In this document: piece by piece, positions 4,593 through 28,435 of the stretch | How positions within the stretch are numbered: the first letter of the stretch is position 1 | Layout: each line of letters starts with the position of its first letter | UHGV virus genome: UHGV-0045956 | Direction: 5' to 3' (one strand) | Source of the DNA: a virus | DNA: 32,333 nt | Translations under genes and position numbers: made by a program | The notes under the pieces: generated by a model | Told to the model about the DNA's origin: nothing | Database searches by the model: none | The model's input: the letters and a program-made list of their open reading frames with translations, nothing else

Positions 4593-4699
4593 NNNNNNNN
4601 NNNNNNNNNNNNNNNNNNNNNNNNNNNNNNNNNNNNNNNNNNNNNNNNNNNNNNNNNNNNNNNNNNNNNNNNNNNNNNNNNNNNNNNNNNNNNNNNNNN
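4593..4699. other. assembly gap (107 N)
   Basis: Run of N inside the E coding region. Confidence 0.98.
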
Positions 4700-5256: not shown

Positions 5257-6447
5257 TTAATTGCTGTTAACCGAAGTGACCAGATTTGCCAGGTATTTAT
5301 CGGTAATACGCTGGCGCAGGGTCAGGTTTTCGAGAGGAGGCACCGGTGTATAGTCGTAGTCGATATACAGTTTTCCGGCCTTGAGGGTTTCCGCATCGTT
5401 GGATTCTTCGCTGAACCAGCAGGTCGCATCCACGATATAGCCGTTTGTTTTCAGCTCACGGAATTTGGCATTGATGCCGTCAACGATGTCGCGAATCAGC
5501 GTTGCGGTGATGGGCTTGTCCACCGCCCACATGTGCGCCTCAGCCATCGTGTCGGCCATCACCTGCGCGGTGCGGGTGTAGTTTTCAAAGAGGAACAGCG
5601 GGTCATCAGAGCAGGTACGGTTACCCCAGAATCGGAAACCGTCGCGGCGAATCAGCGTAGTGACGCCTGACTCGTTAAGCAGGTCAGCATCGGTGCCGGA
5701 CTCCTGCAAATCCCAGAATACAGATGCGCTGATGCCGGTAACACCGTTTACCCCGACGTTGGACAGCGTTTTATGCCAGCCCTGCTCCTGGTCGATTCTG
5801 GCACGCAGACCCAGCGCACGGGCGGTGGCATACGCGGTGGCGGTGGTACTGGTGACCGTATCCCATGCGAGGAAATCCGGCCAGATGACCATCAGCTCAC
5901 GCTGGCTGAAATTCTGGCGATAGGCTTTCACCTCGGCAATGGTCTTACAGCCCCATGCGCTGATATATCCGAAAGCGCGCAGCTTCTGACAGACGGATGC
6001 CAGTGCAACAGCCACCTCTTTGGTATCCAGTCCCGGCACACCGAGAATACGCGGTTTAACACCGGTTACCGACTCCGCCGCCAGCAGGGCTTTCAGTCCG
6101 GTGTACTGACCGTTTTCGTCGGTGGTGCCGATGATATTGGAAACGGTCTGCGCAAGTTTCGTTTCCTCGTCGTCGCCGGTGCCGTCTTCCACGCGCACAA
6201 CAACGGTGACCGGTTTTGACTGGTCAGCGATGGCCTGTAACGACGCCGCCAGCGTGCCTTTTTTACCGGCCTTTGCAATTGCGCTCTGCACATTGGTAAT
6301 CAGCACCGGTTTATTGAGGGGGAAGGTTTCCGCATCCGCATCGCTGGCCGTGCAGACCATGCCGACAATGGCCGTGGATACGGTGGAAATGACGCGGGTG
6401 CCGTCGTTAATCTCCAGCACCTGCACGCCGTGATGATAGTCACTCAT
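5257..6447 (-). CDS. FI: contractile tail sheath protein gpFI
   Basis: 396 aa as in P2 FI; GGAG ribosome-binding site before ATG 6447. Confidence 0.9.
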   Translation of the reverse strand: MSDYHHGVQVLEINDGTRVISTVSTAIVGMVCTASDADAETFPLNKPVLITNVQSAIAKAGKKGTLAASLQAIADQSKPVTVVVRVEDGTGDDEETKLAQTVSNIIGTTDENGQYTGLKALLAAESVTGVKPRILGVPGLDTKEVAVALASVCQKLRAFGYISAWGCKTIAEVKAYRQNFSQRELMVIWPDFLAWDTVTSTTATAYATARALGLRARIDQEQGWHKTLSNVGVNGVTGISASVFWDLQESGTDADLLNESGVTTLIRRDGFRFWGNRTCSDDPLFLFENYTRTAQVMADTMAEAHMWAVDKPITATLIRDIVDGINAKFRELKTNGYIVDATCWFSEESNDAETLKAGKLYIDYDYTPVPPLENLTLRQRITDKYLANLVTSVNSN

Positions 6448-6552
6448 CCGTTTAACTCCGTGGTTAATGGGTGCAACTATTTTCTGTTGTGCAGAGCATG
6501 AGACGCTATTTGACCTGGCTGGTCAGTGGATGAAACAACAGATAAAGAAAAA

Positions 6553-6630
6553 NNNNNNNNNNNNNNNNNNNNNNNNNNNNNNNNNNNNNNNNNNNNNNNN
6601 NNNNNNNNNNNNNNNNNNNNNNNNNNNNNN
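6553..6630. other. assembly gap (78 N) followed by A22 and C17 homopolymers
   Basis: N run, then aaaaaaaaaaaaaaaaaaaaaaggggccgccccccccccccccccc at 6631..6677. Confidence 0.95.
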
Positions 6631-6752
6631 AAAAAAAAAAAAAAAAAAAAAAGGGGCCGCCCCCCCCCCCCCCCCCAGTCCTGATTTGTACACACTCATT
6701 TTCCGACTGACAATTTACATAGCCAAAACGCTATCAAATCTGACAGTCTGCT

Positions 6753-6781
6753 TTGAGCGAATAGCAGACATTCATTAATAT
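6753..6781 (+). promoter_or_regulatory. candidate sigma70 promoter TTGAGC-N17-TAATAT for the cargo gene
   Basis: -35-like 6753..6758, 17-nt spacer, -10-like 6776..6781, ~70 nt upstream of ATG 6854; overlapped by dyad GTCTGC-N12-GCAGAC (6746..6769). Confidence 0.3.
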
Positions 6782-6853
6782 GTTTGTTAGGCTAACTTTA
6801 TATGATAATTACTGAAATTGACCTTAGTTTGAGAATTGCATTAGGGGAATAAA

Positions 6854-7960
6854 ATGGATGTCATTGAACTTAGAGAGTTACTTATCAAGTATAATGGTCT
6901 TCAAAATACTGACGAAGTCTATACGTTTTATTATGATGAAACGAATAATATTCGAAAACTATATTTAAAAGATTCTGGTTTTAATGTTGTAAAGGCGGAT
7001 AATTTCATCCTTGCAGGAATACTACACAAAGGGTTAAGCACTGACAGCGATTATTCAACCCTATTTAAAAAACTTAATCTTCAAAAAAGTGCCCGCGAGT
7101 TAAAACTCAGTCATATTGCCAAGGGTAGTTTTTTGGACATGCTTAAATCTGATAAGCTTTTAATTATTCTAAACTGGCTTATTGAAAACAATTTCCACAT
7201 CCATTATTTTAATCTTAATATCACATACTGGTCTATTATTGACATTATTGATTCTATTATTGGAGAGCTACATAATCCTTTTTATATCATGAACCACATG
7301 TCACTTAAGAGCGATTTTTATGAGCTTGCCAATAGCAATTCCGATGTTTTCCTGAATGCTCTACATAAATTTAACTACCCCGATATTCCAGAAGAAAAAG
7401 TTTATGAGTTTTGCCTCTGGCTTATCGATTTTACATGCATGCACAGTTGTATGCTACCAGATTTTCGAGCACACGCACTCAAAAATTTGGTTAAAGAATC
7501 TCTAAAAATCGAAGAACTACCGTTCATATCGGGATTTCATGGTCGAAAACTGATCGATAGCTTTATGGTATTTTATTTAAGAAACTTGTATCTATTTAAA
7601 AATTCCATTCACATATTTGATGAAGAAAATAGCATTCAAGATGAAGTTAAAAACTTCCCGTTAACTGAAAATGGCATACCAATACAGAATCATGAATTCG
7701 TTAAATCCCACAACTCAGAGGCTGTCCAACTATCTGATGTTATCGCAGGCTTTTTGGGTAAGTATTTTTCTTACTTAAAAGATGTAAATGACGAGCAATT
7801 AGCGATTGATAAGTCAGCCTTAACGAGCAAGCAATTTAAGACCCTTTCTGCGTTAAAACACATTATTGATATTTCTGATGATGTTAGCAGAGGATTTTTT
7901 AATGAAGTTAGCAGCGAGGGAGAGCGACGAAGAAACAACCGTTTTTTACATGGTGTATAA
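6854..7960 (+). CDS. hypothetical protein, AT-rich cargo gene at the Z/fun position (candidate defence/exclusion gene)
   Basis: 368-aa ORF, AGGGGA ribosome-binding site, strongly AT-rich, opposite strand to the flanking late genes; no transmembrane segment; DE near N-terminus (YYDETNN) and Q-x-x-D near C-terminus (VQLSDVIAG). Confidence 0.75.
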   Translation: MDVIELRELLIKYNGLQNTDEVYTFYYDETNNIRKLYLKDSGFNVVKADNFILAGILHKGLSTDSDYSTLFKKLNLQKSARELKLSHIAKGSFLDMLKSDKLLIILNWLIENNFHIHYFNLNITYWSIIDIIDSIIGELHNPFYIMNHMSLKSDFYELANSNSDVFLNALHKFNYPDIPEEKVYEFCLWLIDFTCMHSCMLPDFRAHALKNLVKESLKIEELPFISGFHGRKLIDSFMVFYLRNLYLFKNSIHIFDEENSIQDEVKNFPLTENGIPIQNHEFVKSHNSEAVQLSDVIAGFLGKYFSYLKDVNDEQLAIDKSALTSKQFKTLSALKHIIDISDDVSRGFFNEVSSEGERRRNNRFLHGV

Positions 7961-7984
7961 TCGTAAGGGGTAAATTCTGCTTTT

Positions 7985-8024
7985 GGCACAGAGCGAACTG
8001 TCAGATTAGTTTTTACTCTGTGCC
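7985..8024. terminator. hairpin between convergent cargo gene and G (9-bp stem ggcacagag/ctctgtgcc)
   Basis: Perfect 9-bp inverted repeat with 22-nt loop, preceded by TTTT; sits between two convergent stop codons. Confidence 0.35.
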
Positions 8025-8059
8025 ATAGATGTATAAACTCACATCAGAGCTTATACAAT

Positions 8060-8587
8060 TTATTGCGGTATTTCCGGCCATTCAGGATTTGCAAGATCCA
8101 CACGACTGACCAGAACGCTGTAGCGTTCCCATGTTTCCAGTCGGCTGCGCTCCTCCTCTGTTGCCATATTCAGCCTGACAGCGCGCTCCAGCGGCAAAAT
8201 CACGGATTCAGCATCTGCAAGAAGTCTGGCTTTCCGAATTTCTGCCTGCTGCTGCAATTCCTCTGCCGTATAAATGCGTTTAGTCACTGTGCCGTCCTTA
8301 AACATCCAGTTCCCTGAAATGTCCGCCCGTCGGTTAGCAGTAATATCCGGCACTTCAACAACACTTAATCCATCCGGTCTGATAGCTGTCACATCCTTTT
8401 CCACATAGCGGATGATATTATCTTTGTCGTACGCTATTTTTATCGTGTCATCAGCAAAATACTTTTGTTCTTCGTACCAGTTCTTACCATCTTCTGTAAA
8501 AAACCAGACAACATCAAACTCCTTTGTCAATTGATATTGTTCAACCGTTTTTGGATTACCTGCCGTTATATTTATCAAATGCTGCAT
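8060..8587 (-). CDS. G: tail fibre assembly protein gpG
   Basis: 175 aa as in P2 G; directly downstream of H. Confidence 0.85.
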
Positions 8588-25301: not shown

Positions 25302-25428
25302 NNNNNNNNNNNNNNNNNNNNNNNNNNNNNNNNNNNNNNNNNNNNNNNNNNNNNNNNNNNNNNNNNNNNNNNNNNNNNNNNNNNNNNNNNNNNNNNNNNN
25401 NNNNNNNNNNNNNNNNNNNNNNNNNNNN
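25302..25428. other. assembly gap (127 N) followed by ~31-nt poly-G
   Basis: N run, then gggggggggtgggggggggggggggggggggg at 25429..25460. Confidence 0.95.
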
Positions 25429-26153: not shown

Positions 26154-28435
26154 GTCCACTCCATTACTGTTGAGAATCCCGGCCACTCATCAGCGACCGA
26201 ATACGTGAATTTTTTCCCGTCATAATTTACGGTTGCCCCACGCGCCAGCGCCTCAAGCTCCCATCGCTGCGGCCTGATACCATTCTGAGCAAGGTCAACG
26301 CGGATACGGGTAATTTGCATTCTTTCCGACCGGGTCAGTCTGGCCGATGGTGCAATTTCATGTGGTTTTAACGGGCTTCCGTTTCTTTGCTGACGGTTTG
26401 GCGTTCTCAGGTCGTGTTTTAATGCGCCCCTGAGCGCCCTCACGACCTCCGGGTCACTCCATTCGATAACACCGTCATTAACCAGATTAAGCACTGCTGC
26501 GGCGTGCTCAGAAGGTGTGGGAGCCGGTAACGAAGTATCACCACCGGTGAGTTTTCCACAGTTATTGACAGGACTCCGAGGCGCGGCGATGCCGCTTTTT
26601 AAAGTCAAAGGCTCAACGACCGGAACTTTCGGCACAATGCGCCAGTCCGTCGTTCTGGTGATATGAATATGACGCGCGCCGAGATGCGGCGCGTAAATGC
26701 CGACCACTCTCTCGACTTCTTCCTCGTACTCGTTAACTTCATCCGACGGGCTACGGGCGACTCTGACAGTCTGGCAATCGCGCGGAACATTTGCCCCACC
26801 CTGCGCACTGATATACAACGCAAAATCGCCACTGTCTGCGGCAGCGCGTGCAGCCTCGACGCGTTCGTCAAACTCATCAGCAATGCTGACGCCGCGAGGC
26901 AATTTGCGTAGTTCACGGTAAGCCCCCATTGTCGGCAGACCAACCGTTTTAAATTGCGGGATGCGCCACGTTGACGCCCATGCAGTAACAGCCGCGGCAG
27001 TATCTTTCAGAGGTCTGCCGGTATCGTTATCGAGCTGACCATCCAGTGCATAGCCGTCGATATTTTTTGAAATGTATTTCGCGATATACCCCGCAGCACC
27101 GCCCCGGTTAAGGTGTTTCGCCTGAAAACGGTTTCGCTCGGCTCCTCTTTCGTCGCCATCCTCTTTGAGCGCGTAGCGACGCATGGTTTCGATAATCTGG
27201 TTACGCTGACGTGGATTACAAAAAAGCATCATATGCCAGTGCGGCGTTCCGTCGTGGTGTGGCTCGACGACACGCAAACCGTAGACCTGTAAATCATTAT
27301 CCTTGAATGCCGTGCGCATCAGGCTCCAGATGCGGCAGAGATAACGCTGCGCATCCTTTGGATTAAATGCCTCATCGTTCCAGCCGTGATTTAGCTGGAC
27401 GGTTTTACTTTCGCCTTTTCCGACCTGACGTGTCGGGTGATACTTTGACGGCGCGGTCAGCGTGATAAACATCCCCACATCACCCTCTGCGGCGGCGTAA
27501 CGCTCAATACCGGCGATGGTGTTCATCAGCTCCATCCGGCGAATTTCTGGATTAGAAATACTGCCCATCACCTTACTGATAAGGTCGATGCGCTCGCCGG
27601 TTTCCCTGTTTTCAAGGTCACACGATTTAAGAAATTCCAGATTTGCCTGGCGGCGCGCACGCACATCACGAATGGCGTGTTTACTGGCATAAGGAGAACG
27701 GTCTTTATTGACCTCCCCGACAGCTATCAGTAACGCTTCATGCCAGCGCATACGCTGGCCTTTAAGCTGATGAGTCCACCACTCATCGTTAAACAGACGG
27801 GCAATGGCAGAATATGCCTGCCTCGTGGTCATCTGCCCTTTACGGTATTTTTTCCAGTAGAGAGGGGAAATATTGAAAGCACGTGCAGCGCCAGCAACAT
27901 GACCATAGAGGTGAGCCTGCGCCTCATCCGTAAACAGCGATTCTTTTTCGCCATGCGCATCCACCCAGGCATCGCTGAGTTCCTCATACATCATGAAAAG
28001 CTGCGATGAGATACGGGCAGCAAACTTTTTCAGCTCCTTGTCATTCATTCCCGGCAGGCGCGCATAGTGGTCACGCTCTGCCAGAAACAGCAACGACGCG
28101 TCGGTGTTCATTTCATGGCGCTGATTCACACGCTCAATGCGCGGCCATAAACGACGCTGAAAAGTGGATGTGAGGAAATAAAACCCGTGTACCGGGCTTT
28201 TATTGCGCCGGATGTAGTCATAGCGTGAAGTAAACAGCGAGCGCAAAAAGTAAGGCAGGCGGTTAATCGTGGATAAAACACCTTGCACCTGACGCATCTC
28301 GTCACGTGTAAGGGGTCTTTCGCGCCCGACGGCCTCGCGTGGCGCGTTCCATGCATAAGCACCGGTAAACGCCTTACCGGTGCCTGCAGCAAATGCTGAA
28401 GGAGGGACAAAACGCCCGGAGGCTTTAACGGCCAT
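26150..28435 (-). CDS. A: replication initiation endonuclease gpA
   Basis: Trimmed to ATG 28435 (MAVKASGRF…), 761 aa as in P2 A; contains the conserved …HHDGTPHWHMMLF… and …AGYIAKYISKNIDG… regions I associate with rolling-circle initiators. Confidence 0.88.
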   Translation of the reverse strand: MAVKASGRFVPPSAFAAGTGKAFTGAYAWNAPREAVGRERPLTRDEMRQVQGVLSTINRLPYFLRSLFTSRYDYIRRNKSPVHGFYFLTSTFQRRLWPRIERVNQRHEMNTDASLLFLAERDHYARLPGMNDKELKKFAARISSQLFMMYEELSDAWVDAHGEKESLFTDEAQAHLYGHVAGAARAFNISPLYWKKYRKGQMTTRQAYSAIARLFNDEWWTHQLKGQRMRWHEALLIAVGEVNKDRSPYASKHAIRDVRARRQANLEFLKSCDLENRETGERIDLISKVMGSISNPEIRRMELMNTIAGIERYAAAEGDVGMFITLTAPSKYHPTRQVGKGESKTVQLNHGWNDEAFNPKDAQRYLCRIWSLMRTAFKDNDLQVYGLRVVEPHHDGTPHWHMMLFCNPRQRNQIIETMRRYALKEDGDERGAERNRFQAKHLNRGGAAGYIAKYISKNIDGYALDGQLDNDTGRPLKDTAAAVTAWASTWRIPQFKTVGLPTMGAYRELRKLPRGVSIADEFDERVEAARAAADSGDFALYISAQGGANVPRDCQTVRVARSPSDEVNEYEEEVERVVGIYAPHLGARHIHITRTTDWRIVPKVPVVEPLTLKSGIAAPRSPVNNCGKLTGGDTSLPAPTPSEHAAAVLNLVNDGVIEWSDPEVVRALRGALKHDLRTPNRQQRNGSPLKPHEIAPSARLTRSERMQITRIRVDLAQNGIRPQRWELEALARGATVNYDGKKFTYSVADEWPGFSTVMEWT

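Follow-up and report, generated by a model that had tools for sequence, protein, structure and literature searches.

Inverted repeats around the Z/fun cargo gene of a P2-like prophage as probable ends of a transposase-less cargo element

The FI-G locus and its inverted repeats

The window analysed here, the whole 32,333-nt stretch of virus genome UHGV-0045956, is a P2-like prophage in which the list of open reading frames gives the order FI, a gene of 368 aa, G, and then the tail fibre gene H. Its nucleotide identity to phage fiAA91-ss is 99.5%, and to six complete E. coli genomes 99.5-99.9%; the annotation of that nearly identical phage likewise places the cassette between FI and G. The 368-aa protein matches DUF3800 in Pfam (E=1.2e-6) and, over its full length, the candidate defence family PDC-S51 in PADLOC (E=8.9e-106). 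The features of the locus, in window positions, are as follows.

5257-6447, minus strand: FI, tail sheath (open reading frame list and annotation of fiAA91-ss)
6680-6686: left flanking 7-mer CCTGATT, taken to be a target-duplication copy that has decayed; its geometry fits the empty sites
6687-8057: whole inserted element of 1371 bp (left arm, cargo, right arm), from a paired minus/plus match of the arm HMM
6687-6772, minus strand: FI-side terminal inverted repeat, 86 nt, reading outward (nhmmer E=1.1e-16, model positions 1-86)
6707-6712, minus strand: second, subterminal TGTCAG of the left arm, 33 nt from the core motif, seen in the sequence and part of a conserved family block
6737-6747, plus strand: upstream 11-mer AATCTGACAGT, arm model positions 26-36
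6746-6769: inner dyad of the left arm, GTCTGCT-N10-AGCAGAC, conserved in the family without compensatory changes
6773-7971, plus strand: cargo-specific DNA, with no homology to other P2-like Z regions beyond the arms
6854-7960, plus strand: cargo gene, 368 aa, DUF3800 / PDC-S51 (Pfam, PADLOC)
7972-8057, plus strand: G-side terminal inverted repeat, 86 nt, reading outward (nhmmer E=6.1e-16, model positions 4-86)
7985-8024: 9-bp hairpin GGCACAGAG-N22-CTCTGTGCC, in the G-type arm only, not called as a terminator
7997-8007, minus strand: downstream 11-mer (ACTGTCAGATT on the plus strand), arm model positions 26-36
8058-8064: right flanking 7-mer ATTTATT, equal to the single copy in empty sites and overlapping the G stop codon
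8060-8587, minus strand: G, tail fibre assembly (open reading frame list and annotation of fiAA91-ss)

An initial annotation of this DNA had drawn attention to the two 11-mers on either side of the gene, and both are present at 6737-6747 and 7997-8007 as exact reverse complements of each other. Its estimate that such a match would seldom arise by chance is also borne out, with an exact inverted match of at least 11 nt appearing in 33 of 5000 mononucleotide shuffles of the flanks (176 + 99 nt). Across the 32-kb window, there are three matches to the 11-mer at up to one mismatch, compared with 0.36 expected, and none of 100 shuffles reaches three. On the shuffles of the flanks and of the window, a chance origin of the pair was rejected. 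The sole further near-match in the window lies at 26760 and carries one mismatch, and the phage's own control region holds no copy.

The dyad that had been described beside the upstream copy exists as well (GTCTGCT at 6746-6752, N10, AGCAGAC at 6763-6769). Its proposed overlap with a -35 element found no support, as a consensus scan returned no promoter-like site in 6631-6887 and none touching the dyad. The upstream 11-mer lies 107 nt from the start codon of the 368-aa gene, whose promoter must lie within the 81 nt 5' of the gene, in cargo-specific DNA. On the other side, the downstream 11-mer does sit in the loop of a 9-bp hairpin, as had been noted, with a loop of 22 nt and stems at 7985-7993 and 8016-8024. 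No T-tract accompanies this hairpin on either strand, and a search of positions 6400-8200 against Rfam at E<=5 gave just one spurious match, to enod40.

The inverted match grows beyond the 11-mers: a repeat search yields 32-nt arms with 81% complementarity, and with an HMM built from 12 arms of the family the repeats reach 86 nt and bound an element whose termini in the window read 5'-TGTACAC...TTATACA-3'. The HMM match on the G side spans 7975-8057(+), and on the FI side homology of the arm stops at 6772/6773. Left and right arm are identical at 55 positions over 89 alignment columns, a score that none of 2000 shuffles equals.

Conservation within the arm was taken from 89 unique full-length arms. 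Among these, ACTGTCAGATT (model positions 26-36) is the best-conserved 11-nt window at 1.69 bits/position, and across genera the conservation of the 11-mer and of the termini far exceeds that of the rest of the arm. The subterminal TGTCAG, 33 nt farther out, is degenerate and thus weaker than the core motif. The inner dyad contains a variable pair that forms a C-A mismatch in 31/89 arms, with no compensatory change, which argues for recognition of the sequence over recognition of a hairpin. A hairpin maintained by covariation was considered and rejected, as the inner dyad shows no covariation. A promoter role of the arms was likewise set aside, the scan having found no promoter-like site in them.

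The arms in P2-like phages and beyond

A sample of 80 IMG/VR loci fetched with FI, together with phage records, gave 55 occupied Z regions, which fall into 33 cargo clusters between the same arms. The initial annotation had raised the recurrence of the motif at related cargo boundaries, and we do find it on both sides, at a fixed offset and with at most one mismatch, in nearly all of the 55 occupied loci. In an alignment of 11 phages with at least seven different cargos, both flanks are conserved and homology ends at identical points, with a sharp inner break (...AGCrGACrTT / cargo / AAyGTCCGCT...). The suggestion that the 11-mers mark the boundaries of a cassette stands in so far as they lie inside conserved arms that bound a variable cargo in every P2-like phage compared, but they are not the boundaries themselves: since the element ends at 6687/8057 and the cargo occupies 6773-7971, 25 nt separate each 11-mer from the inner edge of its arm.

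Seven P2-like loci are empty, having neither arms nor cargo and reading GCCCGCCTGT-ATTTATT-GCGG, with the stop codon of G abutting a GC hairpin terminator upstream of the FI promoter. Since it is exactly this unit that these seven loci lack, arms and cargo together constitute one insertion. Occupied P2-like sites read GCCCGCCTGT-CCTGATT-[TGTAC...ATACA]-A(T/C)TTATT-GCGG, a geometry that exactly fits a 7-bp target duplication of which the left copy has drifted. In our window, the flanking 7-mers agree at only 4/7 positions, and we therefore infer the P2 insertion event from the geometry. A strong GC hairpin terminator sits just outside the element in the window. P2 itself retains the FI-side arm only, with a canonical terminator replacing the G-side arm, and truncated arms are found in a few P2-like phages.

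The cargos at the P2-like locus include the PARIS proteins AriA/AriB, an OLD-like ATPase-Toprim protein, TIR, a reverse transcriptase and a Cap15-type receptor, as well as Mrr, DndB, RelA/SpoT and DUF3800, and they lie in either orientation (29 ORFs on one strand, 17 on the other). Defence cargo elsewhere comprises PvuII restriction-modification, SMODS with a 4TM effector, and SIR2 with HerA; copies outside P2-like phages also carry sets of LysR, MFS and dehydrogenase genes, a sulfate permease, and others.

Joined consensus arms are present in 2716 of 5426 complete E. coli genomes, and the density of arms in this species is roughly one per 6 Mb. The non-phage E. coli loci with arms include the gltD-nanQ region, an island in Nissle 1917 and an island in strain 1162C. 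A species scan of one genome each, using the outward-reading unified motif GTCYGCT-N10-AGCRGAC-TGTCAGATT, was positive for Enterobacter, Morganella, Pantoea, Intestinirhabdus, Klebsiella, Yersinia and Xenorhabdus. Near the arms in 8 other species, no homologue of FI, G or H was found within the ~8 kb fetched. On plasmids, arms occur at 166 places in 138 records. Copies of the family are found on phages, plasmids and chromosomes in at least 10 genera, and the arm HMM finds their arms always paired minus/plus, enclosing 0.36 to 6.1 kb.

Insertion, proposed cargo exchange and rival readings

The termini of the family read 5'-TGTAT(T/A)nGCTCAG...CTGAGCTAATACA-3'. Directly outside them lie 7-bp direct repeats that match at 45/56 positions, compared with 8-17 at shifted offsets, and an independent set gives 36/49, compared with 10-18. 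Perfect 7/7 repeats are present at five independent sites (L098, L172a, L173, L245 and L270/L217, the last two loci representing one site), and at some paired arms the flanking repeats are poor (3/7). The 7-mers vary by site (GCTAACT, TATTAGC, GCTTAGT, CTATATC, CATAAGC and others). For L173, a copy on a K. pneumoniae plasmid with the duplication GCTTAGT, we reconstructed the empty site by deleting the element and one repeat, and the resulting sequence is found unbroken in 12 related plasmids over 600/600 nt. The perfect 7-bp duplications and the exact empty site in 12 near-identical plasmids point to recent insertion. Of ten independent sites, about six fall within a GC-rich hairpin or at most 5 nt from one, as does the P2 site; this preference for terminator sites could reflect survivorship rather than targeting.

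Among the ~110 ORFs in or beside the elements, no transposase family or other dedicated enzyme was found, and the largest elements (L098 of 6.3 kb, L105 and L108), in which an autonomous copy was sought, yielded no transposase. Because none was found in the cassettes, mobilisation in trans is assumed. For a "transposase" annotated beside the copy in E. coli HS, Pfam gives no domain, and the annotation is probably wrong. Ends of the IS21 type were also considered and set aside, as IS100 of pPCP1, the only IS21 member compared, gave no match to the arm HMM even at E<=10.

One cargo occurs both in the P2-like phage L080 and in L095, a chromosomal island of E. coli, with 86.8% identity over 1737 bp. 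Besides the cargo, the match takes in the two arms, of which the G-type one is intact and the FI-type one degenerate; judged by eye, the outer arm has diverged further than the cargo has. Several different cargos are found with each outer-arm variant in P2-like phages, the variants tracking the phage backbone, and in pairs of phages with different cargos no part of the arm varies more than its inner 14 nt. Such a pattern of arms and cargos is what crossovers within the arms could leave, though among phages cassettes are also shuffled by ordinary recombination in G and FI.

Taken together, we consider it reasonably probable that the 11-mers are the top-conserved block of the terminal repeats of a transposase-less cargo element that inserts with a 7-bp duplication, and that the P2 copy is a slot for cargo. 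Members of the family would insert with a 7-bp target duplication, often in or adjoining a GC-rich terminator hairpin. The P2 copy would go back to an ancient single insertion into the gap that separates the stop codon of G from the terminator lying upstream of the FI promoter, presumably by the same mechanism as in the rest of the family. Once docked, it would have served as a slot whose cargo was repeatedly replaced through putative crossovers within the arms, with family members on phages, plasmids and chromosomes as likely donors, and this would have given rise to the variable "Z/fun" locus. The 11-mer, with its degenerate repeat 33 nt outward, would be the most likely candidate binding site for an enzyme mobilising the element in trans, protein binding being conjecture on our part. 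A broader and more tentative proposal, which we regard as possible but rather less likely to be right, is that there exists a family of transposase-less cargo transposons of Enterobacterales, with 86-nt ends, a 7-bp duplication and sites at terminator hairpins, which carry defence and metabolic genes and are moved in trans. Such a family, proposed with the same reserve, would shuttle PARIS, OLD-like proteins, parts of CBASS, SIR2-HerA, PvuII restriction-modification, TIR, reverse transcriptases, DUF3800 and also metabolic genes between phages, plasmids and chromosomes.

For the mobilising enzyme, we favour a trans-acting transposase making 7-bp staggered cuts, with site-specific recombination as the main rival, because most elements have no recombinase, the 7-mers vary, inversion is not seen and the ends of IS100 are unrelated. 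In the rival case, a tyrosine site-specific recombinase would act at the arms to integrate, exchange or invert the cassette, and the 7-bp repeats would be the crossover overlap. A 200-aa tyrosine recombinase consisting of the catalytic domain only does lie inside arm-bounded elements of a P2-like phage, E. coli Nissle and Xenorhabdus, and loci fetched with this recombinase are enriched in arms, which the HMM finds in 32/68 of them, compared with roughly one per 6 Mb in E. coli. A strict regular expression had first given no link between recombinase and arms, and it was the HMM that revealed the enrichment. The 7-N10-7 dyad in each arm could also suit such an enzyme, although a 10-nt spacer is unusual for the core sites of tyrosine recombinases. 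However, most elements have no gene for this recombinase (among the 33 P2 cargo types, just one has it), and in some loci it lies outside the arm. The 7-mers vary by site, no conserved attachment site is visible in the flanks shown, and inversion is not seen: for the commonest cargo, the junction is normal in 203 genomes and inverted in 0, and there are no inverted cargo matches among the 55 occupied loci. We therefore regard this reading as unlikely.

The perfect 7-bp duplications, and the exact empty site in the 12 near-identical plasmids, also bear on the idea that the arms are inert relics of one old insertion, which would act as short patches of homology while cargo is turned over by ordinary homologous recombination. 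Such an origin could explain why no enzyme was found in or beside the elements, why at the P2 site only 4/7 positions of the duplication still match, why the arm variants track the phage backbone and not the cargo, and why one arm of the chromosomal copy L095 is degenerate. The recent insertions speak against it, as does the conservation of the 11-mer and termini across genera, which fits selection for recognition and not neutral decay, and we judge it improbable. Still less probable, to our minds, is a function of the arms as outward-facing transcription terminators or insulators that protect the late tail operons from cargo transcription. Neither arm received a terminator-like call, no T-tract follows the stems, and the inner dyad tolerates its C-A mismatch in 31/89 arms without compensatory change. 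The hairpins found in each arm (the inner dyad, and the 9-bp hairpin on the G side) and the replacement of the G-side arm by a canonical terminator in P2 would be in keeping with it, but a strong GC hairpin terminator already sits just outside the element, and arms occur in many contexts without an operon needing protection.

The 11-mers had also been proposed as sites for a regulator, and their symmetrical placement around the gene, with the upstream copy 107 nt from the start codon, would be consistent with operators for control of the cargo gene by a phage protein (C, Cox or Ogr) or a host regulator. This we consider highly improbable, and the proposal of sites for C, Cox or host regulators was not upheld, as the arms also occur on plasmids and chromosomes without nearby P2 tail genes. 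The motif flanks cassettes there that have no P2 genes, and in P2-like phages it flanks cargos of either orientation (29 vs 17 ORFs). The control region of the phage has no copy, the only near-match being that at 26760 with its one mismatch, and the annotated promoter of the P2-EC67 cargo lies inside the cargo and not in the repeat. Several known sites were compared by eye with the motif and rejected: the spacing is wrong for crossover sites of Hin/Gin, there is no XerD arm as in XerC/D sites, and both the TGT-N12-ACA site of Ogr and the IHF consensus are absent. A possible 11-nt identity with the ERIC repeat (GAGCTTACATA) was given no weight.

Relation to described systems

Repeats at the Z locus of P2-like phages have been deposited before. 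GenBank entry AJ512685 (the "Z-region" of P2-EC67) matches our window in blastn, with annotated left and right inverted repeats around a different ORF. Its "right inverted repeat" of 91 bp and "left inverted repeat" of 113 bp each include the 11-mer, and they can be aligned with the arms of the window column by column. The locus between G and FI and the sequence are the same, and there too the repeats enclose a non-essential ORF that differs among phages; the deposited repeats run slightly past the element ends defined here, into G. Given that repeats at the P2 Z locus were already annotated in AJ512685, the finding as first given was already known. This entry and its sister entries are, we take it, those of Nilsson, Karlsson and Haggard-Ljungquist, Mol Biol Evol 2004.

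A review (PMC8987985) attributes site-specific recombination at the Z-region repeats to Nilsson et al. 2004, and, citing the same study, states that repeats of this type also flank genes in bacterial genomes. The latter statement agrees with the arms that we find outside phages. The mechanism differs: site-specific recombination is named in PMC8987985 for the Z-region repeats, whereas we observe a signature of transposition (TGTAT...ATACA termini, 7-bp duplications and empty sites). What may be new relative to the published account is the set of defined 86-nt ends, 7-bp duplications and exact empty sites, together with the location near terminators and the broad distribution with defence cargo. 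A literature search on the sequence and on mobile insertion cassettes returned nothing relevant.

Like mobile insertion cassettes and cargo-carrying MITE-like elements such as MIC231 of Bacillus cereus and the Tn3-derived TIMEs (PMC4133298), the elements have inverted repeats, a target duplication and passenger genes, lack their own transposase and are presumably mobilised in trans. For MIC231 and TIMEs, however, the parent element is known, whereas no autonomous partner was found for the arms described here, whose ends are also long (86 nt) and carry a repeated subterminal motif. The duplication in the Tn3 family is 5 bp, compared with 7 bp here. Long multi-site ends with TG...CA termini are characteristic of the IS21 family, Mu, Tn7 and Tn552, and the duplication lengths of IS21 (4-8 bp) and Tn552 (6-7 bp) both accommodate the 7 bp seen here. 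The arms are similar to these in their TGT...ACA termini, their ends of ~90 nt and the occurrence of TGTCAG twice, 33 nt apart. IS100, the sole member compared, has no match to the arm HMM, and the elements neither contain nor adjoin istA/istB, tnsB or a similar gene.

The pdif modules of Acinetobacter plasmids and the cassettes of integrons are modules moved by site-specific recombinases, with the sites of dif modules lying inverted. Their sites are XerC/XerD sites of ~28 bp or attC hairpins, and no target duplication is formed. The elements described here likewise are discrete accessory or defence modules between conserved, recombination-type repeats on many replicons, but they differ in their 86-nt ends and variable 7-bp duplications, and by eye contain no dif-like site.

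Among the reservoirs of anti-phage genes in E. coli, P2-like prophages are a major one. Rousset et al. 2022 analysed a P2-like defence hotspot next to cos and left the mechanism of exchange open, the rapid swapping of genes at variable P2-like loci being a stated open question (PMC9122126). The Z/fun locus is similar to that hotspot in being a variable locus of P2-like prophages with anti-phage genes, and differs from it in being a second locus, with a cassette that has recognisable mobile-element ends. As the conserved core of ends common to cassettes on plasmids and chromosomes across the order, the 11-mer provides a handle on gene exchange at Z/fun. If our preferred reading is true, the "Z/fun" of P2 would be a docked copy that exchanges cargo via its ends, offering a concrete mechanism of turnover for a phage defence hotspot. 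The profile of the 86-nt arm can also serve in practice as a marker with which to find new accessory and defence cassettes.

A small tyrosine recombinase associated with the arms

We find that genes for a 200-aa tyrosine recombinase, consisting of the catalytic domain only, are strongly enriched near arms of the kind that bound the cargo cassette between the tail genes FI and G (86-nt terminal inverted repeats): of 68 loci fetched with this recombinase (L105-L171), 32 contain arms. Two examples of a tyrosine recombinase near arms are:
L108, 2726-8227
L117, 4633-7182

Some of the recombinase loci have a partial arm (positions 18-86 of the 86-nt arm model) ~1.1 kb upstream of the recombinase gene, oriented so that the outer end of the arm points toward that gene. 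In Xenorhabdus littoralis (L102, 4297-6583), an ORF encoding a reverse-transcriptase domain, probably a group II intron, appears to interrupt the gene for the 200-aa recombinase; the recombinase gene lies within an arm-bounded element and adjoins a TIR-domain gene.

Elements with little cargo and copies outside phages

A mini-element of ~610 bp recurs at L181, L203, L209 and L216 and at about 14 more IMG/VR loci, its arms covering model positions 2-79 on one and 17-86 on the other and leaving hardly any space for a gene. The Z cassette, as the variable cargo locus between FI and G is called, measures only ~590 bp in a P2-like prophage of E. coli THO-015 (L094, 1501-2095), with no convincing gene between its arms.

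Copies are also found on a chromosome and on a plasmid. The gltD-nanQ interval of E. coli HS (L092, 2707-3085) carries an arm resembling the G-side repeat, at 77% identity, after a 101-aa ORF that is annotated as "transposase" yet has no Pfam domain; a DUF1016 gene upstream is truncated. Roughly a thousand E. coli genomes seem to have this arm at the same place in the chromosome. Five arm matches fall on the single plasmid p_153kb of Yersinia pseudotuberculosis IP31758 (L172), including two complete elements inside 24 kb, in a region abundant in toxin, nuclease and PAAR genes.

The window and the locus beside FI

The 11-mer at 6737-6747 and 7997-8007 is the most conserved block of the arm (model positions 26-36), and its sole other near-match within the window is:
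26760-26770, ACTCTGACAGT, one mismatch to the 11-mer

Beside the FI-side arm, 6553-6677 is a run of N followed by poly-A and then by GGGGCCG and poly-C, where the near-identical P2-like phage fiAA91-ss has a GC hairpin terminator (AAAAGGCGGGCAATCTGCCCGCCTGT). The stretch has the appearance of an artefact of assembly or masking, and false terminator calls arise from it; further N runs occupy 4593-4699 and 25302-25428.

In place of the cassette, just upstream of FI, many P2-like phages have a gene for a Gin/Pin-type serine DNA invertase (197 aa, MLIGYVRVSTNDQ...STLYKKFP), as seen at L013, L014, L019, L025 and about 12 more loci from IMG/VR.
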